From NCBI GenBank assembly GCA_964358095.1, contig CAYHNW010000001.1, positions 71,108 through 135,107 on the forward strand: DNA of 64,000 bases, written 5' to 3'. The DNA is from an uncultured Candidatus Peribacteria bacterium (GTDB lineage Bacteria; Patescibacteriota; Gracilibacteria; UBA1369; UM-FILTER-53-11). The position numbers were made by a program, and so were the translations under genes. How positions within the stretch are numbered: position 1 is the stretch's first letter; the number at the start of each line of letters is the position of its first letter. The notes beneath the pieces were generated by a model. That model made no database searches, had not been told where the DNA came from, and saw only the letters and a list, made by a program, of their open reading frames with translations. This document shows, piece after piece, positions 1-39,433 of the stretch.

Positions 1-283
1 CAAAATCCGCCTGTACGTTAGAAAATTTACATTTGATAAAATTGCAATTATCAAAGCCTACCCCCACCAAAGCTAAATTCTTAAATAAAACATTATCAAA
101 TGTGCAATTATCAAATGTTGAACTGCAAAAATCACCCCCCCGGATTGTGCAATTTTTAAATTTAATATTCATCAAATCCAAATCCATCAAAGCATCACTT
201 TCTATAATCTGAAACTCTCCACTGACGGTACTGTTTGACTCTATAAGTTGTAAAAGATGTGTTTCGCTCTTATATCTGGGCAT
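1..283 (-). CDS. pentapeptide-repeat protein, N-terminal fragment (ORF runs off the left window edge; not in supplied ORF track)
   Basis: Own translation of the reverse strand from the ATG at 283: MPRYKSETHLLQLIESNSTVSGEFQIIESDALMDLDLMNIKFKNCTIRGGDFCSSTFDNCTFDNVLFKNLALVGVGFDNCNFIKCKFSNVQADF... Consecutive 5-residue units (FDNCT FDNVL FKNLA FDNCN FIKCK FSNVQ) fit the pentapeptide-repeat pattern. Confidence 0.6.
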   Translation of the reverse strand, partial: MPRYKSETHLLQLIESNSTVSGEFQIIESDALMDLDLMNIKFKNCTIRGGDFCSSTFDNCTFDNVLFKNLALVGVGFDNCNFIKCKFSNVQADF

Positions 284-362
284 ACACGCATAATATCAAT
301 AAAAACGCTTTCATAAAACGAAAAACATTAATTGATCATTAACAATCTAGAAGAATCAGTGG

Positions 363-407
363 GAATGAAATGTTTACTTGCAAATTAAATCCGTAGATAT
401 TTCATTC
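363..407. promoter_or_regulatory. 9-bp inverted repeat GAATGAAAT-N27-ATTTCATTC upstream of ORF 446 (possible operator)
   Basis: Read directly. It lies 39 nt upstream of the ATG and just before the AAGGAGG at 432-438. Confidence 0.2.
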
Positions 408-445
408 TCACTGACAGTTAAAATCACTGAAAAGGAGGCTGCTCC

Positions 446-754
446 ATGGCTAAACACACGTGGAACGATGGATCCGTTACTTCAACAGGAGAGTGGACTT
501 CGTGGCGCGCACACGAGGATGGTGCTCTCATAAAGTTTCAGCACGATGGCACGTGGATCCATATCCTGGCAAGCGTTGCTGATGAGCCAAAACCCAATGA
601 CAATCACGTCCACTTTAAGTTCAAGATGGACGGAGGTCACCCTCACTCCTACGTGCTCTGTTGCGTCAAGGTAGATGGCATGCGGGAAATCAACAGGAGA
701 AGGCTCATCGAAGAGATCAACAGTATAACCGGGCTGAACCTGAGCTACAGGTAG
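446..754 (+). CDS. hypothetical small protein (102 aa), no recognisable family
   Basis: The ATG is preceded by a strong Shine-Dalgarno AAGGAGG (432-438, 7-nt spacing). A plus-oriented terminator lies at 856-883. The region is visibly more G+C-rich than its flanks. The antisense ORF 482-763 was judged spurious. Confidence 0.55.
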   Translation: MAKHTWNDGSVTSTGEWTSWRAHEDGALIKFQHDGTWIHILASVADEPKPNDNHVHFKFKMDGGHPHSYVLCCVKVDGMREINRRRLIEEINSITGLNLSYR

Positions 755-855
755 TCCAACCATTCAAAACAATCTCGCTGTCAGAAAGAGAGTCCCATTT
801 ATCGGTTTTGGTTAAAGCCATCTCGATGAGCAGAAAACCTGCTGGTTAATGGGTA

Positions 856-883
856 GGGGGCAAGGAAACTTGCCCCCTTTTCC
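856..883 (+). terminator. rho-independent terminator
   Basis: GGGGGCAAG-gaaa-CTTGCCCCC followed by TTTTCC. Confidence 0.6.
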
Positions 884-988
884 AAAAACGAAGAATCTAT
901 AACTTCATTTTAAAATCTTGAGTGGACGTAGCATTTTTGAAGGATGGGTCTAGTGGGCACCAGGCTGAAAAAATGCGAGTGCAGTTTC

Positions 989-1135
989 TCAAGAGGAAAA
1001 ACCTCGCCTCACTCATGAAAATGTTTTCTGATTCTTTACGAATTGAAACACATTTTCATGGTTCGGCGTCCTTCGCTACGGCAAAATCTCGCGGAGCTCG
1101 TTTTGCCTTCGCTGCGGAACGGTTTTTTCGCACTT
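989..1135 (-). repeat. Y-element copy 2: about 147-nt non-coding repeat homologous to 24286-24431
   Basis: The reverse complement aligns with 24286-24431. Shared blocks are AAGTGCGA, TCCG, CGAGCT, GGACGCCGAAC, AAAATG, TT.AATT.GTAAA.AAT.AG, CATTTT, GAGGCGAG and CCTCTTGA, in the same order and at the same spacing (55 vs 56 nt between the first two long blocks). No common reading frame exists. Confidence 0.6.
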
Positions 1136-1138
1136 TGT

Positions 1139-1178
1139 CATAAAAAGTTTAGAAAAATTTAATCTTCATATGGTATGC
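1139..1178 (+). promoter_or_regulatory. conserved 40-nt upstream box (copy 1) with TGnTAT extended -10-like end, shared with comM upstream region
   Basis: cataaaaagtttagaAaaatttaatcttca tatggtatgc matches 45566-45605 at 29/30 plus 7/10 positions. It ends 7 nt before the GTG start (8 nt before the ATG in the other copy). Confidence 0.55.
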
Positions 1179-1185
1179 CAAGCGC

Positions 1186-2040
1186 GTGAAGAAATTTATC
1201 GCAGGCGTTTTTTCAATATTAATTTCCTCTGGCGTATTTTTATTTGAGGCACAGCCAGATGGGCTAATGCATGTGTATTTTTTAAATGTTGGCCAAGGCG
1301 ACGCAACTCTTATTCGCACGCCATCGGGTAAAAATATTTTAATAGACGGCGGGCCTCAAAAAAACATTCTTTCTGAAATAAGAAATGCGCTCCCCTATCT
1401 TAAAAGCAAAATCGACATTGTAATTTTGACTCACGCGGATCGCGACCACATTGAAGGGTTAATCTCTATACTCGAACGCTACAAAGTGGAAAAAGTTTAC
1501 TCAACCGGACTTTATAAAAGTGATTACTTTTCAAATAAATTTCTAAAACTCATTCGTGAAAAAAATGTTCAGTTGGTGGTGACCAATTCTCTTTCGGATG
1601 TCAGACTTGAGGACGGCACGTTGATAGATTTTCTGTTTCCTCTAGCCCAGACCTTCGATTCGGGCGCAAAAGCAAACAGCAATTCGGTTGTGGCTCAAGT
1701 TGTATTTGGAGAAAATAAAATTTTACTTACAGGCGATGCGGATTGCGCCGAAGAAAACTCTATTATTAAATCCGGGGTAGAATTAAAATCGAACATTCTA
1801 AAAGTTGGACATCATGGTTCACGCACCAGCACTTGTGAAACTTTTTTAGAGAAAGTAAAACCCAAAATCAGCGCGATTTCGGTGGGAGCAGATAATAAAT
1901 ATGGCCATCCGAACGGCGAACTTATGTCTCGGCTTAAAAAAATTCGAACTCAAATCTTGCGCACGGATAAAGACGGCCGCATAGAAATAACGCTCAATAA
2001 AAACGGTGTCACATCAATCAAAACTCAATCTATACGTTGA
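1186..2040 (+). CDS. ComEC/Rec2-family metallo-beta-lactamase domain protein (stand-alone, N-terminal signal/TM helix)
   Basis: MBL motifs HADRDHIEG, GDAD, LKVGHHGSRTS and YGHP. Hydrophobic N-terminus. GTG start. Confidence 0.8.
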   Translation: MKKFIAGVFSILISSGVFLFEAQPDGLMHVYFLNVGQGDATLIRTPSGKNILIDGGPQKNILSEIRNALPYLKSKIDIVILTHADRDHIEGLISILERYKVEKVYSTGLYKSDYFSNKFLKLIREKNVQLVVTNSLSDVRLEDGTLIDFLFPLAQTFDSGAKANSNSVVAQVVFGENKILLTGDADCAEENSIIKSGVELKSNILKVGHHGSRTSTCETFLEKVKPKISAISVGADNKYGHPNGELMSRLKKIRTQILRTDKDGRIEITLNKNGVTSIKTQSIR

Positions 2041-3284
2041 ATGTCGGCTCCAAGTTTGCGCAATTTCTCGTCAAATTTTTCGTAACCGCGGTCAATGTAT
2101 TGGATGTCTCGCACCACCGTTTTTCCTTTTGCCACGAGCGCCGCCAAAATCATTGCGGCACCGGCTCGCAAGTCCCAGCTTTTCACTTCACAACCGGTAA
2201 GATGCGTGGGCCCGGCAATAAGCGCCTCATGCGGATTCTGCATTTTTATATTGGCGCCCATTTTCACGAGTTCCGGGAAATATCTAAATCTGCCTTCAAA
2301 AAGGGCTTCGTGAATGTGACTTTCTCCATTGGCCTGTGTTAAAAGCACCGCAAACGGCGGCTGTAAGTCGGTTGGAAATCCGGGAAATATATTTGTCTGC
2401 AACCTTTTGCACGCGGAAACTTTTTGCATAGGAAAAACTTTGACTGAATTCTTTGAAACTTCAAATTTTACGCCCATGTCGCGCAATAAATTCCACATTG
2501 GATCCAAATCGTGAGGTACGATATTGCGCACCGTTATTCCGCCTCCACTCAAAACCCCAGCCAAAACAAAAGTTCCGGCTTCCAAATAATCCGACCTAAT
2601 TTTGTAACCTTTCACTCCGCGTAATTTCTTTTTTCCGCGAATTCTCAGCGTATGAGTCCCAATTCCATAAATATCCACACCGATTGCTTCCAAAAATCTG
2701 CATAAATCTTGGATGTGAGGCTCAACGGCTACTAGTCTGATTATTGTTTCTCCTGTTGTGCGCGCCGCAGCCATAATCGCATTTTCTGTAGCAGTAACGC
2801 TAAATTCCGGCATCACGACATCGCGCGCCAAAGGTTTTCCGGCAAAAATAATTTCATCTTTCGCACTCGGCATTCTTTTTGCACCGAGTTTTTCTAAAAT
2901 ATATGTGTGAGTATCAATGGATCTGGCTCCAAGCACGCATCCTCCGGGATACGGCGAGTGTGCACGTCCGGTTCTGGCTAATAGCGGCCCGATCAACAAC
3001 ACTGAGGCACGCATTTTGCAGCACAAATGGCTTAGGATCTGGGTGTGTTTTATCGCATGTGTCCGAATGCTAACGGTGTGATTCTTGAATTCAACCTCAC
3101 TGCCAAGCGACTTTAGAATTCCCAGCATTGTGTGAATATCAGCAATATCCGGCACATTTATAAATGTGCATTTTTGATCCGTTAAAAGTGTTGCCGCCAA
3201 AATTGGCAGAGCGGCATTTTTTGAACCGCCGATCTTAACTTCACCGTGCAGCTTTTTTTCACCATTAATTACAAAACTTGGCAT
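2025..3284 (-). CDS. murA: UDP-N-acetylglucosamine 1-carboxyvinyltransferase
   Basis: 419 aa. N-terminus resembles GGSKNAALPILAATLL, with the catalytic-loop Cys in PGGCVLGARSIDTH. Full-length EPSP-synthase/MurA fold pattern. Confidence 0.95.
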   Translation of the reverse strand: MPSFVINGEKKLHGEVKIGGSKNAALPILAATLLTDQKCTFINVPDIADIHTMLGILKSLGSEVEFKNHTVSIRTHAIKHTQILSHLCCKMRASVLLIGPLLARTGRAHSPYPGGCVLGARSIDTHTYILEKLGAKRMPSAKDEIIFAGKPLARDVVMPEFSVTATENAIMAAARTTGETIIRLVAVEPHIQDLCRFLEAIGVDIYGIGTHTLRIRGKKKLRGVKGYKIRSDYLEAGTFVLAGVLSGGGITVRNIVPHDLDPMWNLLRDMGVKFEVSKNSVKVFPMQKVSACKRLQTNIFPGFPTDLQPPFAVLLTQANGESHIHEALFEGRFRYFPELVKMGANIKMQNPHEALIAGPTHLTGCEVKSWDLRAGAAMILAALVAKGKTVVRDIQYIDRGYEKFDEKLRKLGADIQRID

Positions 3285-3323
3285 GTGTCGCCTATTATAT
3301 CAGATTTACGCTATAATGCAGCC

Positions 3324-4685
3324 GTGCAAAATGTAAGCTTTATTGCAGCCAAAGCGCGAGAAGTTTCCGCTCGTTTTGGTATGTTTTCTACAGATGCCAA
3401 GAATGAAATTTTGTTAAAAATCGCAGAAAGATTAAAAGAAGATACTGCCCGAATTCTAAAAGCCAATGCAAAAGACGTTGCAGTCGGTAAGCGAAAAGGC
3501 CTTTCAGAAGGCTTGCTTGACCGCCTGCTACTCACGAAAGAACGTATGGAGGGAATAATCGCAGATGTACGTAACATTGCAGGTCTAAAAGATTACGTTG
3601 GGAGTGTGATAGAAGAGCGTGAACTCCCAAACGGATTATTTTTGCGTCGTCTTCGCGTGCCACTTGGAGTTGTTGCCATGATTTACGAAGCTCGCCCAAA
3701 TGTGACCGTTGATGCCGCATGCCTTTGCCTAAAAAGCGGTAATGCCGTAATTTTAAAAGGCGGATCAGATGCCATAAATTCAAACCGAGCGATAGTTTCG
3801 TCCATTCAAAGCGTATTAAAAGAAACCAGTTTTTTGGAGCCGACTTCTCGCCTTCAAGATTTGGTGCAACTGGTAGACAGCACCGATTACGCAGTCACAA
3901 AAGAGTTATTAAGTTTAAATAATTTTATTGACGTTGTGATTCCGCGCGGCAGCATGAAGTTAATAAACTTTGTCCGTGAAAATTCGCGAATTCCGGTGAT
4001 AGAAACGGGCGCGTCGGTGGTGCACGCATACATTCACGAAGATGCCGACGTTGCACAAGCCGTACAGATAATTATGAATGCAAAATTGCGCCGTGTTTCT
4101 ATTTGCAACACGCTGGATACGCTCTTGGTACACAAAAAAATCGCGCCGGTTTTACTGAAAGCTCTCGTTGAAGCGCTGCCAAAAAATCAGTATAAAGCAG
4201 ATCACCTGGAGCTGCGTGCCGACGCAGAAAGTTTTGGAATTTTGCGCAAACTTTCGAAGCCAAAAGAAATTGCAGCCAAGCCACCTCACCTATCGGCAGG
4301 CGGGCGGCTCGGCCTGTTCGAATTAAATTTTAAAAAATCCACACCGCAAGATTATTCCACGGAATTTTTGGATTATATTTTGGCAATTAAGACCGTGCGC
4401 TCGCTTGACGAGGCGTTAAATCATATTTCCCACCACAGCCTGCGCCATTCAGAGGCGATTGTTACCGCAGATGAGCGCGTAGCACAGCGTTTTCTGCAAA
4501 GTGTGGACGCGGCTTGCGTTTACTGGAACGCCTCAACGCAGTTTTCAGATGGCGGACAATTTGGACTCGGCGCAGAGATTGGAATATCCACTCAAAAGCT
4601 GCACGCGCGCGGCCCATTTGCGCTGGAAGGCCTAACAAGCTATAAGTGGGTAATAGAAGGCAACGGACAAATTAGGACACCATAA
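3324..4685 (+). CDS. proA: gamma-glutamyl phosphate reductase
   Basis: Aldehyde-dehydrogenase-type ProA motifs (VIYEARPNVT, GNAVILKGG, CN..DTLLVH, ASTQF.DGG.FG). The listed ORF start 3246 overlaps murA. In-frame GTG at 3324 (or 3285) is a more plausible start; the start is uncertain. Confidence 0.88.
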   Translation: MQNVSFIAAKAREVSARFGMFSTDAKNEILLKIAERLKEDTARILKANAKDVAVGKRKGLSEGLLDRLLLTKERMEGIIADVRNIAGLKDYVGSVIEERELPNGLFLRRLRVPLGVVAMIYEARPNVTVDAACLCLKSGNAVILKGGSDAINSNRAIVSSIQSVLKETSFLEPTSRLQDLVQLVDSTDYAVTKELLSLNNFIDVVIPRGSMKLINFVRENSRIPVIETGASVVHAYIHEDADVAQAVQIIMNAKLRRVSICNTLDTLLVHKKIAPVLLKALVEALPKNQYKADHLELRADAESFGILRKLSKPKEIAAKPPHLSAGGRLGLFELNFKKSTPQDYSTEFLDYILAIKTVRSLDEALNHISHHSLRHSEAIVTADERVAQRFLQSVDAACVYWNASTQFSDGGQFGLGAEIGISTQKLHARGPFALEGLTSYKWVIEGNGQIRTP

Positions 4686-8123: not shown

Positions 8124-8151
8124 TTGCCTATAGCGATTTGGCAGGTATAAT
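8124..8151 (+). promoter_or_regulatory. sigma-70-type promoter for metK
   Basis: TTGCCT-16 nt-TATAAT, 27 nt upstream of the metK ATG. Confidence 0.45.
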
Positions 8152-9336: not shown

Positions 9337-10599
9337 ATGAAATACCAAGTAAAAGACATCGGCCTCGCCGCTCAAGGCGAGAATCAAATTAAATGGGCTC
9401 GCCAAAGCATGTCCGCACTGCTCGAAGTAGAAAAGCGCTTTGCCAAAGAAAAACCATTTAAAAATCTAAAAATCGGCATGGCATTGCACGTCACAAAAGA
9501 AACCGGCGTTTTGGTTGAAGTTTTGCAGGCCGGCGGCGCAGAAGTGCACATCGCAAGCTGCAATCCCCTTTCCACTCAAGATGATGTAGCCGCTTACTTG
9601 GCAAAGAAAGGTGTCGCGGTTTTTGCATATAAAGGCGAAAACAAAAGCGACTATTACAAGTTTATCAAAGCTGTAATCGCGTCAAAACCTCACATCACAA
9701 TAGACGACGGTTGCGATGTGGTTTCGGAAATTCATTTGAAGCATAAAGAATTAATTCCACAGATTCTGGGCGGCTGCGAAGAAACGACGACCGGTATCAA
9801 CCGCTTAAAAGCCATGGAAGCGGACGGCGCGCTTAAATATCCAATGATCGCCGTAAACGACAATCGCACAAAACATCTTTTTGATAATTATTACGGAACC
9901 GGGCAATCAACTTGGGACGGCATTTTGCGCGCAACAAACATTTTAATAGCCGGAAAAACCGTTGTCGTGGCAGGTTACGGCGATTGCAGCCGCGGCATTG
10001 CAAATCGCGCAGCCGGTCTTGGCGCAAAGGTGATAGTTATGGAAATTGACCCGGTTCGAGCACTTCAAGCATTTATGGATGGATATCGCGTTATGAAAAT
10101 GGAAAATGCTGCGACGCTCGGAGATTTGTTTATAACGGCGACCGGTGGAAAACACATCATCAGTACATCTCACATGAAAAAAATGAAATCCGGGGCAATT
10201 ATGGCGAATAGCGGGCACTTTAATGTTGAGATAGACGTGGAAGGTTTGAATAAAATGGCAACGCGCAAAAAACTCATTCGCCCATTTGCGGAAGAATTCC
10301 AAATTGGCACGGGTTCAAATGCAAAAAATATTTATTTGTTGGGCGAAGGCCGTTTGATAAATCTGGCAGCGGCAGAAGGCCATCCGTCCGAAGTTATGGC
10401 GATGTCGTTCTGTGGCCAAGCGCTAGCTTGCGAATGGTTGGTTAGGCAGCGGGGGAAATTAGAATCAAAGGTCTACACTTTGCCGCAAGTAATAGACGAC
10501 GCAATTGCTTCATTACAACTAAAATCACTTGGCATCAGCATAGACAAGCCAACCGCCGAGCAGAAGAAATACGCCTCTTCCTGGCAAGAAGGAACCTAA
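9337..10599 (+). CDS. ahcY: adenosylhomocysteinase
   Basis: Typical AhcY sequence (CNPLSTQDDVAA, EETTTG, GYGDCSRG, NSGHFNVEI). Confidence 0.95.
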   Translation: MKYQVKDIGLAAQGENQIKWARQSMSALLEVEKRFAKEKPFKNLKIGMALHVTKETGVLVEVLQAGGAEVHIASCNPLSTQDDVAAYLAKKGVAVFAYKGENKSDYYKFIKAVIASKPHITIDDGCDVVSEIHLKHKELIPQILGGCEETTTGINRLKAMEADGALKYPMIAVNDNRTKHLFDNYYGTGQSTWDGILRATNILIAGKTVVVAGYGDCSRGIANRAAGLGAKVIVMEIDPVRALQAFMDGYRVMKMENAATLGDLFITATGGKHIISTSHMKKMKSGAIMANSGHFNVEIDVEGLNKMATRKKLIRPFAEEFQIGTGSNAKNIYLLGEGRLINLAAAEGHPSEVMAMSFCGQALACEWLVRQRGKLESKVYTLPQVIDDAIASLQLKSLGISIDKPTAEQKKYASSWQEGT

Positions 10600-10637
10600 G
10601 GACAGGCTGGCATCCTTAAAATGTAACAAAAACCCCC

Positions 10638-10666
10638 TTGACTAATATAAGTATTAAGTGAATACT
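10638..10666 (+). promoter_or_regulatory. candidate promoter of the Cys-rich surface protein gene
   Basis: TTGACT-17 nt-AATACT, 26 nt upstream of the ATG at 10693. Confidence 0.3.
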
Positions 10667-10692
10667 TACCTCTTTACCGTTTTTATAAAAAT

Positions 10693-12204
10693 ATGAGCAA
10701 ACTACCATCGTCTCCAGATAGAAGCACACTCCCTGACCGAGTCGGTGTCCGGACACAAATTGGAAAACCAACCGGATTTAGCGCCTTTACCGGAGCTATT
10801 GCACTTGCAGCACTTAGCCAAGCCGGATGCATAGTTGAATTTGATTGCAAAGATAACATTCCATGCAAAGTTGGCACAGGAGTATGCGCACAGGGGGGTA
10901 CTTACGTATGTGATGGTTTGACGGACGAAATAGACAAAAAGACCAGTAAATGCAGCGCAGAACCACTTCCGCCAACAGAACTTCCAGAAATTTCCTGTGA
11001 CGGTTTAGATAATGACTGTGATGGAGACACTGACGAGGACGGGCTATGTAAAGTTCCACTGCCGGATGTAGGGACTCTCGATGCAGATGCTCCCGATGTC
11101 GAAACTGCTACCGATACTGGAGCTCCTGACGCTGGTACACCAGATGCTGAGGCCGAAGACTCCGGACTTCGCACAGACAGTGACACCGGCATGATTTTCC
11201 CAGACACCGGTGGAGACGACAGCGGTCAACCACAACCTGATGAAGGAGAACCTGATGCCGAAATATCTGTGGATACAGGCAGCGTCGATGTCGGCGGCAA
11301 CGTGCCCGACGAGGGAAGCCCGGATGCCGAGGCTCAAGACTCTGGACTTCACACAGATAGTGACACCGGCATGATTTTCCCAGACGCCGGAAGTGATGCC
11401 GGCCAAGCCGACGGCGGCGAGGTTTGCCAGCCCACAGAAGACCTCGAAATTTCCTGTGACAACATAGATAACGATTGTGACGGCGCAACCGATGAAGATC
11501 TTGTGTTTGGCGATTGCAGTGAAGGCGTTGGCTCATGTGAAGCTCAAGGCCAAATAGTATGCCGCGATGGCGAATTAGAGTGCGATGCCCTTCCTGGCGA
11601 ACCTCAAGAAGAAGCTTGCGACGATGAAGATAACGATTGTGACGGACTAATAGATTTGGATGAAGCTAACCGCCCACTCCAACTCGAATGCTTATCTCCG
11701 GTTTGCGGAGTTCAAGGAGCAGAGACCTGCATAGGTGGTGAATTTCAACCTTGCACGGCGGTAGATCCGGATGCCGATAGGGACTTAGTTCTGGATTGCA
11801 TAGACAATTGTCCCGACACTTCAAATCCAGACCAACAAGACGCAAACCAAAGTGGTACAGGAGATGCCTGTGAGGACTCAATGGGCAGATTGTCTTGCGT
11901 CAACAACGGTCGTTCTCCGAGTTTTATACTGCGACAGACCCCTAACGCCCGCACGATGGATGTATTTCTAGAAGGGTGTGGCAATGTAACTATTAACCCA
12001 AACGATGGCGTTCATGGTTCTGTTTTTGCACACAACATACCCGCAAACCCAGGTGCCGTTCCAGAAGCTGCACGCGTTACCGTTGGAATAACTCCGGGCG
12101 TTCTAGTAAGCGGATGTGTAGCCAATACGGACGGCACTCAAGAGACTATGATTCCAGGCAATCCAAACAGCAACTGCTGGGGTCAATCGTTTCAGCCTCA
12201 ATAA
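10693..12204 (+). CDS. secreted acidic Cys-rich protein with CD..DNDCDG..DED metal-binding-type motifs and a thrombospondin-type-3-like repeat
   Basis: Signal-like segment AIALAALSQAGC. Three copies of C-D-x-x-D-N-D-C-D-G-x-x-D-E-D. DNCPDTSNPDQQDANQSGTGDAC. Internal 60-aa duplication. Confidence 0.7.
   Translation: MSKLPSSPDRSTLPDRVGVRTQIGKPTGFSAFTGAIALAALSQAGCIVEFDCKDNIPCKVGTGVCAQGGTYVCDGLTDEIDKKTSKCSAEPLPPTELPEISCDGLDNDCDGDTDEDGLCKVPLPDVGTLDADAPDVETATDTGAPDAGTPDAEAEDSGLRTDSDTGMIFPDTGGDDSGQPQPDEGEPDAEISVDTGSVDVGGNVPDEGSPDAEAQDSGLHTDSDTGMIFPDAGSDAGQADGGEVCQPTEDLEISCDNIDNDCDGATDEDLVFGDCSEGVGSCEAQGQIVCRDGELECDALPGEPQEEACDDEDNDCDGLIDLDEANRPLQLECLSPVCGVQGAETCIGGEFQPCTAVDPDADRDLVLDCIDNCPDTSNPDQQDANQSGTGDACEDSMGRLSCVNNGRSPSFILRQTPNARTMDVFLEGCGNVTINPNDGVHGSVFAHNIPANPGAVPEAARVTVGITPGVLVSGCVANTDGTQETMIPGNPNSNCWGQSFQPQ
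11140..11390 (+). repeat. in-frame 180-bp-period duplication (71-bp cores at 11140-11210 and 11320-11390)
   Basis: The cores encode PDAEA(E/Q)DSGL(R/H)TDSDTGMIFPD(T/A)G twice. They differ at only a few positions. Confidence 0.8.
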
Positions 12205-21930: not shown

Positions 21931-22038
21931 TGGTATCGCGTATGGGATTTGGTCACACGTCATTCCGCCTTAGCGGAATGCGCGCGACCCCGCCTCGGTA
22001 AGCCTTTTCTAAAGGCTTACCTCCGGCATTCAAACCCC
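21931..22038 (-). ncRNA. X-element copy B: structured element ending in a copy of the tRNA-Glu 3' end
   Basis: Reverse strand: GGGGTTTG AATGCCG GA GGTAAGCC-tttagaaa-GGCTTACC GAGGCGGGGTCGCGCGC ATTCCGC-TAAG-GCGGAAT GACGTGTGACC AAATCCCATACGCGATACCA. Homologous to 24173-24282 and 31785-31895. Confidence 0.6.
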
Positions 22039-22089
22039 AATACGGTTCTGTGGAGCCGCTTAGTGTTTACCGATTAAACGTATGTAAAT

Positions 22090-22166
22090 TGGTACCGCGT
22101 ATGGGATTTGAACCCATGATTTCCTCCGTGAGAGGGAGGCGTCCTAGGCCACTAGACGAACGCGGC
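22090..22166 (-). tRNA. tRNA-Glu (anticodon CUC), CCA encoded
   Basis: GCCGCGT TC GTCT AGTGGCCTA GGAC G CCTCC CTCTCAC GGAGG AAATC ATGGG TTCAAAT CCCAT ACGCGGT A CCA folds as a cloverleaf. Confidence 0.9.
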
Positions 22167-24032: not shown

Positions 24033-24108
24033 GGGTCGGTAGCTCAGTTGGTAGAGCAACAGCCTTTTAAGCTGATGGTCGCGGGTTCGATTCCCGCCCG
24101 ACCCACCA
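24033..24108 (+). tRNA. tRNA-Lys (anticodon UUU), CCA encoded
   Basis: GGGTCGG TA GCTC AGTTGGTA GAGC A ACAGC CTTTTAA GCTGA TGGTC GCGGG TTCGATT CCCGC CCGACCC A CCA. Confidence 0.92.
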
Positions 24109-24172
24109 AGAAAAATCACAATAGACGTTTTTATAGCACGCTAAAAAATAGAAGCGTTATTTGTGAAAATCA

Positions 24173-24282
24173 GGGAATCGAATGCCGTAGGAAAGCCTTT
24201 AGAGAAGGCTTTCCGAGGCGGGGTCGCGCGCAATTTTGCTAAGGCAAAATTGACGCGTGACCGATTCCCGCCCGACCCACCA
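24173..24282 (+). ncRNA. X-element copy A: structured element ending in a 21-nt exact copy of the tRNA-Lys 3' end
   Basis: GGGAATCG AATGCCG TA GGAAAGCC-tttagagaa-GGCTTTCC GAGGCGGGGTCGCGCGC AATTTTGC-TAAG-GCAAAATT GACGCGTGAC CGATTCCCGCCCGACCCACCA. The last 21 nt are identical to 24088-24108. Confidence 0.65.
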
Positions 24283-24285
24283 AAT

Positions 24286-24539: not shown

Positions 24540-24983
24540 ATGGAACTACTCACAATTAACGAAGCGGCATTATTCTCCGGTAAATCTATCCAGACTATCC
24601 GCCGCATGATCAAGCAAAAGAAAGTAACCGTAAAACGCCAAAAAACCCCTCAGGGATTCAATTATTTGGTTATTAAAGATTCATTATTGGAATCTATAAG
24701 TCGGGCTAGCCAGACACCTACTCAAGCTGAGCCGATTATTCAAGAGGATACCCGAGAACACCGCCCTATCACGGAGGCCACTTCTCCGGATCTTGAGCAG
24801 GTATTCAGACGTGAAATTGGACAGTTTAATACGACTATTCAAAAGCTTGTTGAGCAGAATCAAAAGGACAAAGAAGGATTTTTCCAATTGATAAAAACTT
24901 TTCAAGATCGCGTCGTGGTTTTAGAGGATCAAATAAAGCAATTGGGAGCTCCTCAAGCATCTTGGTGGCAATTCTGGAAATAA
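24540..24983 (+). CDS. helix-turn-helix (excisionase/MerR-superfamily HTH_17-like) DNA-binding protein with coiled-coil tail
   Basis: N-terminus LLTINEAALFSGKSIQTIRRMIKQKKV. Confidence 0.65.
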   Translation: MELLTINEAALFSGKSIQTIRRMIKQKKVTVKRQKTPQGFNYLVIKDSLLESISRASQTPTQAEPIIQEDTREHRPITEATSPDLEQVFRREIGQFNTTIQKLVEQNQKDKEGFFQLIKTFQDRVVVLEDQIKQLGAPQASWWQFWK

Positions 24984-31784: not shown

Positions 31785-31895
31785 AGGGACATGCTGGGAT
31801 TTGGTCACGCGTATTTTTTGACTTAGCAAAAAATCGCGCGGCCCCGCCTCAGAAAGCCGCCGCTTGCGGACTCGGCTCCGGCATTCAAATCCCGG
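31785..31895 (-). ncRNA. X-element copy C: structured element ending in a decayed copy of the tRNA-Pro 3' end
   Basis: Reverse strand: GGGATTTG AATGCCG G AGCCG-AGT-CCG-caag-CGG-CGGCT TTCT GAGGCGGGGCCGCGCG ATTTTTTG-CTAAGT-CAAAAAAT ACGCGTGACC AAATCCCAGCA tgtccc. Confidence 0.55.
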
Positions 31896-31939
31896 AGTTT
31901 GTTGCACATCTAAAACTAGAGTTGTTCCAACTATAGTTT

Positions 31940-32016
31940 TGGTCGGGGTGCTGGGATTCGAACCCAGGACCTCTTGCTCCCAAAGCAAGCGCGCTAGCCA
32001 GCTACGCTACACCCCG
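31940..32016 (-). tRNA. tRNA-Pro (anticodon UGG), CCA encoded
   Basis: Reverse strand: CGGGGTG TA GCGT AGCTGGCTA GCGC G CTTGC TTTGGGA GCAAG AGGTC CTGGG TTCGAAT CCCAG CACCCCG A CCA. Confidence 0.92.
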
Positions 32017-32650: not shown

Positions 32651-33202
32651 ATGATTGACCTAGACAGGAAATCAGCCGGTAAAATACTCGGTGTCTCTGT
32701 GAGGACTATAGACAGATATATTAGAAGTGGCAAGCTCTTTGCGTATGAGCGGAGCGGCAGAATCTGGCTGAAGAAAGACGAAATTGCACGTTTTTCTCGC
32801 GAGAAAATGCCCGTGGTTTTACGACCAGTAGACAAGGAACGACGCAGTCCATCCGTGTCTACATTTGCCGCCAAATCTCAGGAAACGGATTTTTACAAAG
32901 ATCTGTACGAAGAGGCAAAGCGCGTGCTCACCGACTACCAGCAGAAGTTGGAACAGTCAAACTACAGAATCGGGCAGCTTGAATCTCAAACAACTCATCC
33001 AATTTCAATTCCAAAAACCACCGAGCGGTATGAAGATTCTGCGGCTCAAGAAATAATAAAGAGGGAACTTCATGACCGCGAACGTGAGCTTGCTCAATCA
33101 AAAGAACTTTTTAAACAAGAACGCGCAGGAAAAATAGCGTTCTCTATTTTGACGTATATATTGCTCGCGGCTATACCGTTGATTTGGTATTTACTGCGTT
33201 AA
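32651..33202 (+). CDS. HTH_17-like DNA-binding protein with coiled coil and C-terminal TM anchor
   Basis: SAGKILGVSVRTIDRYIRSGKL, and the C-terminal segment IAFSILTYILLAAIPLIWYLL. Confidence 0.6.
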   Translation: MIDLDRKSAGKILGVSVRTIDRYIRSGKLFAYERSGRIWLKKDEIARFSREKMPVVLRPVDKERRSPSVSTFAAKSQETDFYKDLYEEAKRVLTDYQQKLEQSNYRIGQLESQTTHPISIPKTTERYEDSAAQEIIKRELHDRERELAQSKELFKQERAGKIAFSILTYILLAAIPLIWYLLR

Positions 33203-35081: not shown

Positions 35082-35089
35082 ATGTGGCT

Positions 35090-35196
35090 GCGGCTGGGGT
35101 GTGTCTGCTTCGGTCACTGGAAGTCGGCCTGCCTCATACATGATTCGGCAGGCACTCCTTCTGGAAACGTTTCCTGCGCAGACACACCCCAGCCGC
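35090..35196. repeat. 107-bp element bounded by perfect 19-bp inverted repeats (structured RNA or MITE-like)
   Basis: GCGGCTGGGGTGTGTCTGC (35090-35108) and GCAGACACACCCCAGCCGC (35178-35196). The interior has GCCTGCC-N13-GGCAGGC and GGAAACGTTTCC hairpins. G+C-rich compared with its surroundings. Confidence 0.5.
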
Positions 35197-35258
35197 GCCC
35201 CAATCTAGGCTTACTAAAAGGCCTGTATTTCAGGTTAATTCACGTGTATAACGTTGGC

Positions 35259-36140
35259 ATGATCGGTATATTTGACTCGGGCTATGGCGGCCTTACAATA
35301 ATGCGCGAGATCGTCAAGACGTTGCCGCAGTATGATTATCTTTACCTCGGCGATAACGCGCGCGCTCCTTATGGAAACCACAGCAAGGAGACGGTGACGA
35401 AGTTTTCGGAAGAAGCCGTGAGATTTTTGTTTGATAAGGGATGCAATTTGATAATTTTTGCGTGTTTCACGGCGAGTTCGCTTGCACTGCGTGAATTGCA
35501 GGAAAAGTATTTGCGGAATCCCTGCCTGCCGGCAGGCGAGGCAAAATCTAAATTTAAAGACAGAAAAATTCTGGGGGTGATTCGGCCGATTGCGGAGCAG
35601 GCGGTGCGCGAGACTATGACCGGACGCATTGGCGTTACTGGCACGCGTGCGACGGTTAATTCGCACACTTTTGATGTGGAGCTGGAAAAAGAATGGAAAC
35701 TCGCGTCAGGGCATAAAAAAGGCATTAAACTGGATTTGACTAGCCAGGCTTGCCCGCTGCTCGTGCCGCTGATTGAGGAACACTGGCACACGAAGCCTGA
35801 GGCGCGCATGATTTTGAAAAAATATTTGAGGCCTGTGAAAAATCACAACGTGGATACGCTGATTTTGGGATGCACACATTATCCGCTGATGCTGCGGGAT
35901 TTCGTGTCGTTTATGGGTAGCCGCGTGAAGGTGCTGAATTCGGGAGAGATTGTGGCGCGCAGCCTTGCCGACTATTTAACTAGACATCCGGAAATTGAGA
36001 AAAAGTTGAGCCGTGGCGGCGCACGAAAATTCATGACCACCGATGATCCGGCGAAGTTTAAACAATTCGTGGAGGAGTTTGGCGGAATGAAGGCGGGAGA
36101 TGTGGAGGGGGCGGAGGTTGGAAAGATTACAAGCCGCTAG
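35259..36140 (+). CDS. murI: glutamate racemase
   Basis: MIGIFDSGYGGLT..., ACFTAS and LGCTHYP catalytic Cys motifs. The listed ORF start 35022 is a non-homologous extension over the hairpin element. Confidence 0.92.
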   Translation: MIGIFDSGYGGLTIMREIVKTLPQYDYLYLGDNARAPYGNHSKETVTKFSEEAVRFLFDKGCNLIIFACFTASSLALRELQEKYLRNPCLPAGEAKSKFKDRKILGVIRPIAEQAVRETMTGRIGVTGTRATVNSHTFDVELEKEWKLASGHKKGIKLDLTSQACPLLVPLIEEHWHTKPEARMILKKYLRPVKNHNVDTLILGCTHYPLMLRDFVSFMGSRVKVLNSGEIVARSLADYLTRHPEIEKKLSRGGARKFMTTDDPAKFKQFVEEFGGMKAGDVEGAEVGKITSR

Positions 36141-36283
36141 ATTACTTAATATTTTTTTATGGGAGCAGATATGGAAGGGGAGATATCCCAAGAAGTTGAA
36201 CTAAAACTCGGTACAATTGGCGAACTAAGGACTTTTTTAACGGAATACGTAGATATCGCCTGAGGGTGTGAGGGGACAAGAAC

Positions 36284-36318
36284 CTCACTCCCACTCAATC
36301 GTCCCTGGCGGTTTGTTT
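36284..36318. repeat. direct repeat DR1 (orphan copy of the guaA 3' end; att-like)
   Basis: 35/35 identity with 37636-37670. Confidence 0.9.
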
Positions 36319-36380
36319 TGTATTGCCGGGAATCCCGGTAGTTTGACATTTAATGCTAATTCCCGGTATACTTAACCTGT

Positions 36381-37340
36381 ATGAAGATACATATCCCAAA
36401 CAGCGTGTGGTTAGGGAATATAGACCCGTTCCTTAAAGGATTTAAACCAGCAAATCCTGATCAATTAAAAATAACATTCAATAAGAAATGGCTATCTATA
36501 CATCCAATGGTGCTGACGATGATTGCCGCTTTAGGCATAAAAACAAATCCCTCAAATATCGAGTGTGAAAAACTCGAAGCAAGATCTAAACATTACTTAG
36601 AGAGGATGAGATTATTTGATTTTCTGCATGTAACGTCGGGCATTACGATGAAAAAACATGAACTCGCGGGCAGATCTGTACCGTTGACTCAAATTAAAAA
36701 CTCGACGGAATTAACGGAATTCATCACAGAAGTAACGCCTTTACTTCACCTTGAGCCAAAACACGCTGAACCCATACGCTACATAATGAGCGAATTGATA
36801 AGAAATGTACTTGAGCACTCCATGTCAAAACACGGAGCTATTGTATCCGCCCAATACTACAAAAAAAGTAATACTATTCGCATTGGGATTGCTGACACAG
36901 GTATCGGCATATGGAAATCAATAAACCAATCTTACAACCCAAAGACTGATTTGGAGGCAATCCGTTTAGCATTAACTCCTGGCATTACCGGAACAACAAG
37001 GCAAGAAGGCGGGACGGATCGCAATGCGGGTGCAGGCTTGTTTTTCATAAAATCAATAGCTTCTGTAAATAGTGATTTTTTCGTTATCTATAGCGGAAAA
37101 GCAATGTATAAACTCTTAAAAAGAAAAGGTAAAAAAATAAAATTGCATGTTGACCCTTTTGAAGACAGACATTCTAAAAAAGGTGATCTGCCAAGCTGGG
37201 AAGGTACTGTTGTCGGTATCGATCTTTCATTGGATACTACACAAGAATTTTCCCTGCTCTTAAAACTGCTAAACGAAACTTTGAACGAAGCCATAAAAGA
37301 AAGGAAAAAAGCTCGTTATAAAAAACCGCAATTCACATGA
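36381..37340 (+). CDS. GHKL-superfamily (HATPase_c, RsbW/SpoIIAB-like) ATP-binding protein with an uncharacterised N-terminal domain of about 120 aa
   Basis: N-box SELIRNVLEHS, G1 IADTGIGI, G2 GAGLFF. No His-kinase H-box/DHp domain. TATACT -10 box lies 8 nt before the ATG. Confidence 0.7.
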   Translation: MKIHIPNSVWLGNIDPFLKGFKPANPDQLKITFNKKWLSIHPMVLTMIAALGIKTNPSNIECEKLEARSKHYLERMRLFDFLHVTSGITMKKHELAGRSVPLTQIKNSTELTEFITEVTPLLHLEPKHAEPIRYIMSELIRNVLEHSMSKHGAIVSAQYYKKSNTIRIGIADTGIGIWKSINQSYNPKTDLEAIRLALTPGITGTTRQEGGTDRNAGAGLFFIKSIASVNSDFFVIYSGKAMYKLLKRKGKKIKLHVDPFEDRHSKKGDLPSWEGTVVGIDLSLDTTQEFSLLLKLLNETLNEAIKERKKARYKKPQFT

Positions 37341-37627
37341 TTCACATAAAATTATTCAAACAGGTTGGCGTATTCGCTGAAAATAAAGACATTGCCGCAG
37401 ATATCAGATTAAACAAATTGCTTCCAGCCCTAGAGAAAAATCAAGATATCATATTGGACTTTGAAAAAATCGAAGGAGCCACTCAATCTTTTATACACGC
37501 CCTTATCAGCGATTTAATGAGAAAATACGGGAATGAAGTGTTAGATAAAATTCAATTTAAATCGTGCAACGCCACAGTGAAAGGAATCATTTCCATCGTA
37601 GTAGATTATATGCAAGAAAGTGATTAG
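37337..37627 (+). CDS. STAS-like (DUF4325-type) small protein, putative partner of the GHKL ATPase
   Basis: 96 aa. IILDFEKIEGATQSFIHALISDL matches the 'LDF..V....SF..ElF' signature as I recall it for DUF4325/STAS-like domains. ATGA 4-nt overlap with the upstream gene. Confidence 0.6.
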   Translation: MIHIKLFKQVGVFAENKDIAADIRLNKLLPALEKNQDIILDFEKIEGATQSFIHALISDLMRKYGNEVLDKIQFKSCNATVKGIISIVVDYMQESD

Positions 37628-37635
37628 GAACCCTG

Positions 37636-37670
37636 CTCACTCCCACTCAATCGTCCCTGGCGGTTTGTTT
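37636..37670. repeat. direct repeat DR2 (functional 3' end of guaA)
   Basis: Encodes ...NKPPGTIEWE-stop on the reverse strand. Confidence 0.9.
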
Positions 37671-39433
37671 GTGATGTCGTATAAAACGGCGCCGGATTTT
37701 TTGTGGAGTTTGGCGGTGAGTTTTTTGAGCAGCGTCGAATTCATTTTGTAAAAATGCGCGGTCATGGCTTCGTCGGAACAAATTGGGCGCAGAACCACGG
37801 ACTCCAGCGCGCTACCGTTCACCGACACGGGCAAAAGCACGCTTGGGAACTGCCAAACTTCGCGCTCGAGTTTATTTTGCGTGACGAATTTCATGGTGAT
37901 ATCGTCAAGTTCTTGCAGTTTTTTTATGCGAGCCGACGTGAGAGTTGATGGAATTGCACGGACATTTTCTATTTCTTTTGGCGAAAGGAGCAAGCACACG
38001 CGATTGATCGCCGCAAAACGATTCGTGAGCGCCGTTGAAATATTTTCCAAATGTTCAAAATCATAATTTTTGCCCCAAATCACAAGCGGATTGCGATACG
38101 TGCGGCAGTCGCCCTGCACGCCAACGCTCTGAATTGGCAAAATGCGGCCAAAAAGTCCGTGCGGCGCAAGGTGCTTGGAAATGGCTTCGGAAACGTCTGA
38201 ATACTCCGCCGGAAGACTCTCTTTTTTGGTGCACAAGATGCGAACCGCGAGACCCGGACCCGGGAACGGATGCTTCCACACGACTTCGTCCGGCAAACCC
38301 AAATCTGCACCGACTTCGCGAACTTCGTCTTTATAAAGCTCGGCAAGCGGCTCAACGATGCGGCCTTTCTTCATCAGCTCCAATATCTCCGGCACGCGAT
38401 TGTGATGAGTTTTAATTTTATCCGAATGCTTTGTGCCAGCGCTTTCAATCGTGTCAGGATAAATCGTACCTTGGCCAAGTACCCAGTCCGCTGGATTTAG
38501 TTTTAGTTTGCGCGTTTCTTCGGCTTGAATCCGCAAAAACATGTCGCCGATTATGTGGCGTTTTTCTTCCGGGTTCGTGATGCCCTTGAGTGCTTTTATA
38601 AATTTATCCGCGGCGCACACCATGTGAAAATTCTTAATGCCAACTTGAGCAAAAGTTTTACAAATTTTTCCTGCTTCATTTTTGCGCAAAAAGCCAGTGT
38701 CCACAAAAAGTCCGTACACGCGTTCCGTGCCAAGCGCCTTCGTTAAAAGCGCATAGGCAACGGTAGAATCCACTCCTCCACTAACCAGCAAAAACACTTT
38801 TCTATCACCAAGCATTTTCTTGACCTCCTTCATTTTTCCCTCCAAAAACATCTTCATATTCCAACTGCGTTTTGCCTTACAAATATTTATGAAATTATCG
38901 AGCATTTTTAGGCCTTCCGTGGTGTGCGCAACTTCAACATGGAATTGCGTGGAAAAAATCTTTTTTGAAGAGTAGGCGAGTGCCGCAAATTCACAATCCT
39001 CGGTTTTTCCAATACTTATAAAGCCCGGTGGTGGCTTTGTAACCGTGTCACCGTGTGACATCCAAACTTGACTGTGATCTTTTATTCCTTCAAAAATTCC
39101 TATTTTTTTCAGGACGTTCAAGCGCGCCAAGCCATATTCTTTAGTATTCCCTGACTCAACTTTCCCGCCAAGCAAATGCGCAATTATGTGATGCCCATAA
39201 CAGAGTCCGAGTACCGGGACTTCAAGCTCAAAAACTTTTTTATCAATCGTCGGCGCGCCGGATTCATAAACCGACTGCGGCCCGCCGGACAAAATAATTC
39301 CCTTAAATTTGCGAAAATCCGAAAGAGGTGACTCGGGCAGCAAAATTTCTGAATAAACGCCAAGCCTGCGGAGACGATTTGCGATGAGGTGCGCGTATTG
39401 ACTTCCGAAATCTATAACAGCAATGGCATCCAT
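37637..39433 (-). CDS. guaA: glutamine-hydrolysing GMP synthase
   Basis: GATase N-terminus (IAVIDFGSQY, LGLCYGHH), PP-loop LVSGGVDS, and C-terminal dimerisation domain ending TIEWE. ATG at 39433 is preferred; the 34-codon upstream extension has no homology. Confidence 0.93.
   Translation of the reverse strand: MDAIAVIDFGSQYAHLIANRLRRLGVYSEILLPESPLSDFRKFKGIILSGGPQSVYESGAPTIDKKVFELEVPVLGLCYGHHIIAHLLGGKVESGNTKEYGLARLNVLKKIGIFEGIKDHSQVWMSHGDTVTKPPPGFISIGKTEDCEFAALAYSSKKIFSTQFHVEVAHTTEGLKMLDNFINICKAKRSWNMKMFLEGKMKEVKKMLGDRKVFLLVSGGVDSTVAYALLTKALGTERVYGLFVDTGFLRKNEAGKICKTFAQVGIKNFHMVCAADKFIKALKGITNPEEKRHIIGDMFLRIQAEETRKLKLNPADWVLGQGTIYPDTIESAGTKHSDKIKTHHNRVPEILELMKKGRIVEPLAELYKDEVREVGADLGLPDEVVWKHPFPGPGLAVRILCTKKESLPAEYSDVSEAISKHLAPHGLFGRILPIQSVGVQGDCRTYRNPLVIWGKNYDFEHLENISTALTNRFAAINRVCLLLSPKEIENVRAIPSTLTSARIKKLQELDDITMKFVTQNKLEREVWQFPSVLLPVSVNGSALESVVLRPICSDEAMTAHFYKMNSTLLKKLTAKLHKKSGAVLYDITNKPPGTIEWE

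Follow-up and report, generated by a model that had tools for sequence, protein, structure and literature searches.

The 3' end of guaA is a target of tyrosine integrases in Firmicutes, Actinobacteria and Proteobacteria, and the direct repeats of the guaA-targeting elements, 12–54 bp in length, comprise the exact end of the gene only (PMC4701971; PMC5704250). Tn5801-type integrative and conjugative elements (ICEs), ICE_SmiB6_guaA, GIsul2, ATE-1 and the Brucella IncP island all share this target (PMC4701971; PMC5704250); these elements span 10–60 kb and carry their own integrase next to the attachment (att) site, together with conjugation or mobilization genes. Cis-mobilizable elements (CIMEs), by definition, are att-flanked and have lost the genes for integration and transfer (PMC4701971; PMC5704250). 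Here we analyze an islet of about 1.3 kb that is located between the genes murI (glutamate racemase) and guaA (GMP synthase) in a 64-kb stretch of the contig CAYHNW010000001.1 from an uncultured Candidatus Peribacteria bacterium (hereafter, the window). The first-pass annotation of this DNA presented the guaA 3' end as a documented integration hotspot, which the literature confirms (PMC4701971; PMC5704250); Tn5801, with which the islet was compared, is only an analogy, the present host being a member of the candidate phyla radiation (CPR).

Like the guaA-targeting elements, the islet is flanked by a repeat that consists of the exact end of the gene and falls inside the 12–54 bp range; unlike an ICE or an integrative and mobilizable element with a guaA integrase, it has neither an adjacent integrase nor a mobilization module. 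Similarly to the CIMEs and other decayed or non-autonomous integrative elements that occupy housekeeping gene ends in Streptococcus (PMC5704250), the islet combines att-like repeats derived from exactly the 3' end of its target gene with the lack of integration and transfer genes and with small cargo of the accessory or toxin-antitoxin type. In contrast to CIMEs, it resides in a CPR bacterium, and its 1.3 kb correspond to a single conserved operon that leaves hardly any extra DNA in which arm sites could lie. Unlike insertion sequences and transposons, the islet has no terminal inverted repeats and no transposase, and the duplication that flanks it, 35 nt long, varies in length among sister islets; unlike integron cassettes and Xer dif modules, it has no palindromic attC- or dif-like site at the cassette boundary, the repeat being a non-palindromic coding sequence. 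We regard the islet as a version of a familiar arrangement, the att-flanked islet at the end of a housekeeping gene, unusual in its minimal size, its CPR host, its uncharacterized cargo, and in that no cognate integrase was found.

A repeat-flanked islet at the guaA/murI junction

The 35-nt direct repeat, CTCACTCCCACTCAATCGTCCCTGGCGGTTTGTTT, occurs exactly twice in the window (Table 1), on both sides of the islet; no third copy was found in the 64 kb with up to three mismatches allowed, and a shuffled-sequence control gave 0 matches. The first-pass annotation had reported this perfect repeat, which stands, along with its composition, 32 coding nucleotides and the stop codon, which has to be corrected to 31 coding nucleotides, the stop codon, and 1 nt beyond it. 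The islet is present, at 99.8–99.97% identity, in three independent assemblies, namely, ENA ERZ1292638 and ENA ERZ1292629, both from Hainich groundwater, and NCBI GCA_038078575.1. The contigs L001 and L003 (L-numbers are labels of the compared loci and contigs) cover both repeat copies, and the short, low-coverage contig L002 begins within the left repeat. Because three independent assemblies agree, and two contigs span both copies, the repeat is not an assembly artifact, a possibility that the first-pass annotation had left for checking.

The 1,317 nt between the repeat copies hold two overlapping plus-strand genes, encoding proteins of 319 and 96 amino acids (aa), a HATPase and a DUF4325 protein; as initially annotated, there is no recombinase gene in this interior, and no transfer, conjugation or mobilization module either. 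The G+C content (GC) of the interior is 0.34–0.38, and that of the third codon positions (GC3) is 0.36–0.37, compared to 0.47 and 0.50, respectively, in guaA, and 0.51 and 0.59 in murI. The islet is thus more A+T-rich than the two genes around it, as the first-pass annotation stated, but is matched in this respect by some other genes of the host, such as the DUF881 gene (GC 0.38).

Immediately outward of the left repeat lies GTTCTTGTC, which is similar to the sequence that follows the guaA stop codon in the relative L013, GTTCTGTC. Furthermore, the end of the left repeat and its outer flank can form a hairpin, GGGTGTGAGG-9 nt-CCTCACTCCC, only marginally more stable than shuffled sequences (z = -1.8), which we tentatively interpret as a bidirectional terminator at the old end of guaA. 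Given this likeness and the hairpin, the murI-proximal copy is probably the ancestral end of guaA, and the guaA-proximal copy now terminates the gene. The 35-nt repeat is the scar of the insertion event. The spacer between the murI stop codon and the left repeat shows no similarity to any other sequence compared.

Judging by the GuaA relatives, the host belongs to Candidatus Peregrinibacteria (CPR), with the nearest species representative 70% identical in GuaA. An exact-protein look-up found this GuaA in just one other contig, the next relative being 76% identical, and gave no match for MurI. No conspecific contig with an empty site was found in the collections, every available assembly of the species carrying the islet. 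Across 32 Peregrinibacteria species loci, guaA and murI are convergent, in the tail-to-tail orientation. The junction is empty in 9 of these loci, with gaps between the two genes from -17 to +101 nt, and filled in the other 23, with 283–4,391 nt of unrelated, variable cargo; the gap in the window is 1,496 nt. Among the cargo genes of the relatives are toxin-antitoxin pairs (MNT/HEPN and HicAB), a Fic gene, genes for a PAP2 membrane protein and for proteins without recognizable domains, and one for an AAA-DUF4143 ATPase that neighbors a MerR-HATPase-like gene and a further DUF4325 gene. The relatives at 62–70% GuaA identity lack the cassette: in L013 (66% identity), the junction is empty, with a 20-nt gap, and in L010-L012 it holds other content. 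The empty murI-guaA junction that the first-pass annotation proposed to look for exists in related genomes, and the reverse case, an ancient arrangement shared by all relatives with diverged repeats, is very unlikely, the repeats in the window being perfect. The proposed foreign insertion that regenerates the end of guaA is supported, and the islet is absent from the nearest available relatives. The islet is a real, non-ancestral, non-autonomous insertion and, by comparison of these sequences, the guaA/murI junction is a recurrent landing pad, that is, a hotspot for variable cargo in the Peregrinibacteria lineage.

Contigs end just after guaA about as often as just before it (~13 and ~10 of 80, respectively, by a rough count), and thus offer no indication that elements are hidden there. 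A 30-nt segment within the repeat matched 6 metagenome contigs, all at the 3' ends of unrelated guaA genes (GuaA 39% identical), including those of high-GC soil bacteria, and codon conservation explains the shared 30 nt. The same piece matched 0 viral contigs, and the metagenome scan yielded no attP, empty site or element.

The cassette and its two proteins

The sole part of the islet with nucleotide homology to nine other contexts is a unit that consists of a promoter region and the two genes. In blastn alignments (L090, L092, L093, L095, L098, L099, L100, L103, L104-106), the homology begins at 36320-36326 and ends at 37620-37628, and the copies found elsewhere are 67–82% identical to that in the window at the nucleotide level and 73–91% identical at the amino acid level. 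The insert in the window amounts to this conserved unit with about 2 nt added at the promoter end, where the junction filler is at most 1–7 nt (36319 to 36325), and 8 nt at the guaA end, which weakens the earlier suggestion that it is a remnant of a larger element. In the nine other contexts, a lower bound on the number of cassette locations, the gene pair stands alone among unrelated housekeeping genes, across CPR and other phyla. These contexts are rpmF/tpiA, ftsH, a tetratricopeptide repeat (TPR) gene/ftsK, Fic/queG, purD/.../purL, a prepilin peptidase gene, and three further arrangements; the first-pass annotation had suggested looking for the same two genes beside integrases, and in none of the nine is the pair next to one.

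In addition to the two genes, all copies of the cassette share a conserved non-coding motif, with three CCGGGAWT half-sites, a palindrome, CCGGGAATCCCGG (36326-36338), and ATTCCCGG (36359-36366), that flank or overlap the promoter hexamers. This region, in which the half-sites cluster, is predicted to be a sigma70-type promoter with operator-like, autoregulatory sites. The CCGGGAWT palindromes were also considered as recombination sites, and rejected, because they lie on either side of the -35 and -10 hexamers and the 3' end of the cassette has none. The latter end is the stop codon itself, with no conserved non-coding site after it.

Among the 3,104 homologues of the kinase, the best 120 are 73–91% identical and come from metagenome-assembled genomes (MAGs) labelled Gracilibacteria, Peregrinibacteria, Parcubacteria, Pacebacteria, WOR-1 and Nitrospirae; the 96-aa protein follows the same distribution pattern. 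In the MAG JACQRJ01, GuaA and LysS are, respectively, 50% and 39% identical to those encoded in the window, and the cassette kinase is 84% identical and is encoded at a different locus. In the window, and in 8 of the 9 other contexts (all but the short contig L099), the cassette has a lower GC than the DNA around it. The patchy distribution at high identity, the contrast within JACQRJ01, and the low GC of the cassette indicate horizontal spread of a minimal, self-contained operon of ~1.3 kb. No relatives of the kinase were found in IMG/VR. An apparent frameshift in the kinase gene of GCA_038078575.1 is a 10-N scaffold gap and not the sign of a pseudogene, and the seemingly truncated kinases in L104 and L105 reflect start-codon calls on intact open reading frames (ORFs). 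The contig L099 itself (positions 1-4137, Logan SRR22388055) has identical 18-nt ends on its 4,137 nt and contains the cassette, two ORFs without an assigned function, a putative lipoprotein gene and a papain-family peptidase gene; it may represent a small circle or, alternatively, a segment bounded by repeats.

The predicted kinase scores 27.4 bits with the Pfam family HATPase_c_2, which equals the family cut-off, and matches PHROG 3364 (E = 2e-26). Its AlphaFold2 model (predicted local distance difference test, pLDDT, 72; predicted template modeling score, pTM, 0.79) has SpoIIAB, UsfX and RsbW as the top Foldseek matches (probability 0.98, TMt up to 0.68). The 96-aa protein belongs to DUF4325 (Pfam, E = 6e-14), and its model (pLDDT 94.5) matches the STAS domains of SLC26 transporters, RsbS and SpoIIAA, with probabilities up to 0.99. 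Two residues, T49 and S51, do not vary among 25 homologues and are placed just ahead of the helix 50–64 of the model, which corresponds to STAS helix 2; these are candidate phospho-acceptors. The ATPase and DUF4325 domains are fused in the phage family PHROG 5816 and at the N-terminus of one PADLOC model of DrmA, in which only positions 75–389 of the ~1,750 aa match the two cassette proteins. A distant pair with the same architecture (298 and 99 aa, overlapping genes) follows the lysin gene in Streptococcus agalactiae prophages. In the relative L042 (3122-5651), the guaA/murI junction encodes a MerR-type helix-turn-helix (HTH) protein with a HATPase-like region and a DUF4325 protein, adjoining an AAA-DUF4143 ATPase; this remote variant of the module suggests, tentatively, that a DNA-binding regulator can serve as the kinase partner. 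Functional work on DUF4325 is all but absent from the literature; the DefensePredictor paper names the HATPase domain solely in a figure legend, and the origin of a weak sequence match from the PDB, named 'VapS', could not be traced.

The cassette resembles SpoIIAB-SpoIIAA and RsbW-RsbV in that a GHKL kinase with the HATPase_c_2 fold and a small STAS-fold protein are encoded by adjacent, translationally coupled genes, although the kinase has an extra N-terminal domain of ~100 aa and a C-terminal helix. Unlike the known partner-switching modules, the cassette has a protein of the uncharacterized DUF4325 family in the STAS role, and the pair travels alone as a mobile unit, besides occurring in prophages and fused to a DrmA-type helicase; in contrast to DrmA of DISARM, the large helicase core is absent. 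With type II toxin-antitoxin islets, the cassette shares two short, overlapping genes, a promoter with a palindromic, operator-like site, and a patchy distribution suggestive of horizontal transfer, as well as the guaA/murI hotspot, which is occupied by bona fide toxin-antitoxin pairs (MNT/HEPN, HicAB, YafQ/RelE-like); the order and sizes of the genes (319 aa, then 96 aa) and the domains, however, fit no established toxin-antitoxin family. The cargo is probably a self-regulated partner-switching pair. The kinase would bind or phosphorylate the STAS-like protein and, possibly, also a host target; the pair would repress its own promoter and act as an addiction-like or defense-like accessory module, and such a role is proposed to account for its persistence and spread as a minimal unit. 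Two considerations speak against this assignment: the function is deduced from the folds alone, and neither a sigma factor nor a PP2C phosphatase is encoded in the cassette or its conserved neighbors in the ten contexts.

Table 1 Coordinates of the islet, the flanking genes and the tRNA-linked inserts in the window
Feature	Position	Strand	Description
Conserved mobile unit (cassette)	36320..37628	+	~1,308 nt, promoter and two genes; boundaries from blastn
Predicted promoter/operator-like region	36326..36372	+	TTGACA-18 nt-TATACT at 36343-36372; 11/12 matches in scan
Predicted GHKL ATPase/kinase gene, 319 aa	36381..37340	+	~100-aa uncharacterized N-terminal domain, then SpoIIAB/RsbW-like HATPase_c_2
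Gene for STAS-like protein (DUF4325), 96 aa	37337..37627	+	start overlaps the stop of the kinase gene by 4 nt
Left (murI-proximal) repeat copy	36284..36318	no strand	displaced, non-functional guaA 3' end; probably ancestral position
Right repeat copy	37636..37670	no strand	functional guaA end; stop codon 37637-37639 and 1 nt (37636)
guaA (GMP synthase, 598 aa), target gene	37637..39433	-	Pfam GATase and GMP_synt_C; identical protein in GCA_038078575.1
murI (glutamate racemase)	35082..36140	+	Pfam Asp_Glu_race; ancestral tail-to-tail neighbor of guaA
Spacer, murI stop to left repeat	36141..36283	no strand	143 nt; 30-codon ORF (36171-36263) and 5' arm of hairpin
Junction filler GAACCCTG	37628..37635	no strand	8 nt, cassette stop codon to right repeat
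tRNA-Lys and insert	24033-24283	+	duplicated end 22/22 nt
tRNA-Glu and insert	21931-22166	-	duplicated end 20/21 nt
tRNA-Pro and insert	31792-32016	-	duplicated end 11 nt, then decayed

Sister islets and tRNA-linked inserts

Two guaA loci from other lineages contain islets with different cargo, bounded by repeats of the guaA tail. L020 (Patescibacteria MAG JBDRDX01, 9766-11264) has a 31/31-nt repeat around an ORF of 348 aa without a known domain, the second copy abutting the murI stop codon, and L060 (9760-10406) has a 22/23-nt repeat around a toxin-antitoxin pair of the DUF2683 and YafQ/RelE-like families. In both of these loci, as well as in the window, the repeat ends within 1–2 nt of the guaA stop codon. 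No decayed copy of the guaA tail was detected in the other 21 filled junctions, at the nucleotide or the peptide level. The junction that follows guaA in L020 is a patchwork: a 19-mer, AGTGGGAATAGCGGAAAGA, that spans the end of the guaA tail and 9 nt of filler recurs inverted in the cargo (10308-10326), and an overlapping 14-mer, CGGAAAGAATAATT, recurs in guaA, in the antisense orientation, 1.65 kb away (8135-8148). In an empirical null, 2 of 400 random 30-mers had a match of at least 14 nt, and none had one above 14.

Further perfect direct repeats, of 20–22 nt, are present near guaA in other species, namely, in L057 (119-140 and 2210-2231) and in L026 (5054 and 8320); one pair brackets guaA, and the other brackets 3.2 kb that start 229 nt downstream of guaA. 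In L004 (788-4963, ERZ777306, GC 0.37), GuaA is encoded in a single ORF of 1,391 aa, with two large in-frame insertions between the conserved blocks; by eye, these insertions look like repeats of the acetyltransferase type and a segment akin to a 3-methyladenine glycosylase, and the ORF might be an unusual fusion or else a product of mis-assembly.

Elsewhere in the window, three of the five tRNA genes are followed by a non-coding insert of 137–152 nt that ends in a copy of the respective tRNA's own sequence from the T-loop to the 3' end (Table 1). These inserts share a core of ~90–105 nt, with 73–86% identity, that is predicted to fold as a pair of hairpins enclosed by a stem, with the duplicated tRNA segment forming the 3' strand of this stem; 8 of the 39 predicted pairs show compensatory changes. 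There is no Rfam match to the inserts and no integrase nearby. They look like a family of miniature integrative elements or relics of att arms. HTH_17 (excisionase-type helix-turn-helix) proteins without a partner integrase are encoded at two sites in the window, 24540-24983 and 32651-33202, one of these genes directly following the tRNA-Lys insert, and in five related loci, proteins of this family are likewise encoded downstream of guaA.

Routes of insertion

The reading we favor, with a probability of about 0.45, is that the cassette arrived through site-specific recombination, be it in trans or with subsequent trimming. A recombinase encoded elsewhere would have inserted the cassette conservatively and site-specifically at the guaA 3' end, and the islet would count as a miniature or CIME-like integrative element and not as an ICE. 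Within this reading, about two-thirds of the weight falls on a small circle integrated in trans and about one-third on a larger element that was trimmed. We favor site-specific recombination because the repeat is the exact 3' end of guaA, guaA is a known integrase target, the site is used recurrently, and the window contains the att-like inserts at tRNA genes, the layout of which is, by analogy, the classical tRNA att geometry.

Numerous observations weigh against this reading. No integrase was found in the interior of the islet or among the annotated and scanned ORFs of the window, where the neighbors are murI, DUF881, YbeY, MscS and LysS, and a Pfam scan of the less obvious ORFs of the window detected no recombinase. 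A motif scan with a crude regular expression detected no tyrosine recombinase in the Peregrinibacteria and other CPR guaA loci examined, for which the Pfam check covered 25 of the 78 families listed; the sole tyrosine-recombinase-like match downstream of guaA is a XerD-like gene in a Fibrobacter locus. Likewise, there is no recombinase, by Pfam, in any cassette context with annotated genes, no integrase in or near the three repeat-flanked guaA islets, and no intact integrase-bearing element at guaA in the CPR loci examined. Unlike the case of CIMEs, the lineage showed no parent element with an integrase at this att site, within the same Pfam and regular-expression coverage, and neither the window nor the guaA loci nor the cassette contexts demonstrate the tyrosine-recombinase origin implied by the first-pass annotation. 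The insert itself leaves no room for attP arm sites, the element-side flanks downstream of guaA share no motif among the three repeat-bearing islets, and the ends of the cassette copies elsewhere contain no guaA-like sequence. Some of the repeats are of a different kind altogether: in L095, the cassette is flanked by an unrelated, intergenic 14-nt repeat, TTTTATGCTAAAAT, and in L017 (9802-10609), an MNT/HEPN pair is flanked by a 12-nt repeat that consists of the last four codons of murI and not the guaA tail, which suggests that murI once overlapped guaA and then gained a new stop codon. Finally, the patchwork in L020 is typical of templated repair and not of conservative recombination.

The latter observation fits a recombinase-independent alternative, in which the cassette was inserted, with duplication of the target, during replication or break repair. 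A strand or DNA end at the guaA/murI terminator would copy or capture the cassette and rejoin 35 nt behind its point of departure, through template switching or the filling of a staggered break, either of which gives a target duplication of arbitrary length; at these packed, sometimes overlapping, convergent essential genes, only the events that spare both gene ends would persist. We consider this route a serious rival, though less probable than site-specific recombination; it accommodates repeats that are host-derived and vary in length (35, 31, 23, 14 and 12 nt), with two, those of L095 and L017, not derived from the guaA tail, the inverted and antisense patches of L020, the lack of a recombinase in the loci and the window searched, and an insert that is essentially just the cassette; because guaA and murI abut or overlap in relatives (gaps from -17 to +38 nt), duplication would often be the sole viable outcome. 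The junction in the window, in the guaA orientation, reads GAGTGAG-CAGG-GTTCCT, compared to the ancestral GAGTGAG-GTTCTT, with a possible 4-nt filler and 4-nt microhomology, which is weak evidence for repair. However, all three guaA-tail repeats end 1–2 nt from the stop codon, for which a site-specific core is the simplest account, and in the window, about 144 nt of free spacer were available, so that selection did not need the duplication. Furthermore, the junctions in the window show no significant templated patch, a 35-nt duplication is unusual for the known bacterial end-joining, and the L020 patchwork could be a secondary event. A broader proposal, an undescribed, recombinase-poor mode of insertion of minimal selfish cassettes at the 3' ends of guaA and tRNA genes in CPR, with target duplications of 12–35 nt produced by template switching or short-homology capture, appears doubtful; under this proposal, the guaA/murI junction may be an integron-like collector of addiction and defense modules without a dedicated integrase or, in another version, the HATPase/DUF4325 pair may promote its own spread.

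Homologous recombination would also dispense with a recombinase of the element. In this case, a circle of 1,352 nt (the cassette and one guaA tail), formed by recombination between the two repeats, would integrate through a single, RecA-dependent, Campbell-type crossover, the guaA tail, which ranks with the most strongly conserved nucleotide sequences of bacteria, serving as a recombinase-free 'att' site with a broad host range. The repeats of 23–35 nt are, by established knowledge, near the minimal length for RecA-dependent exchange; the repeat ends at the stop codon, where interspecies conservation ends, and its 30-nt piece is identical in the unrelated soil bacteria described above. Yet recombination over 23–35 nt is very inefficient, the origin of the first repeat-flanked copy is left unexplained, and the cassette mostly occurs at sites other than guaA, without repeats; moreover, the three guaA tails differ, and a crossover between species should leave mismatches, whereas the repeats in the window and L020 are perfect, all of which makes this route improbable. 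An assembly artifact, a chance match or an ancient, fixed arrangement has next to no probability: the only point in favor is that all available assemblies of the species carry the islet, against which stand the agreement of the three assemblies and the zero matches in shuffled sequences, which eliminate the artifact and the chance match, as well as the relatives without the cassette and the perfect repeats. Other mechanisms hold the remaining probability.

CPR bacteria (Patescibacteria) have tiny genomes in which few mobile elements can be recognized, and little is understood of the ways in which these bacteria acquire accessory genes. The guaA/murI junction is a concrete, recurrent landing site that collects toxin-antitoxin-like and defense-like cassettes. 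As the highly conserved, promiscuous 1.3-kb operon also occurs in prophages and as a fusion with a DISARM-type helicase, it is a promising candidate for a new module of conflict or addiction. Recombinase-less, repeat-flanked insertions of this kind are informative in that their junctions can tell site-specific recombination in trans from repair-based gene capture, and should the repair-based route hold true, streamlined genomes would have a general way of gaining genes that has been overlooked.

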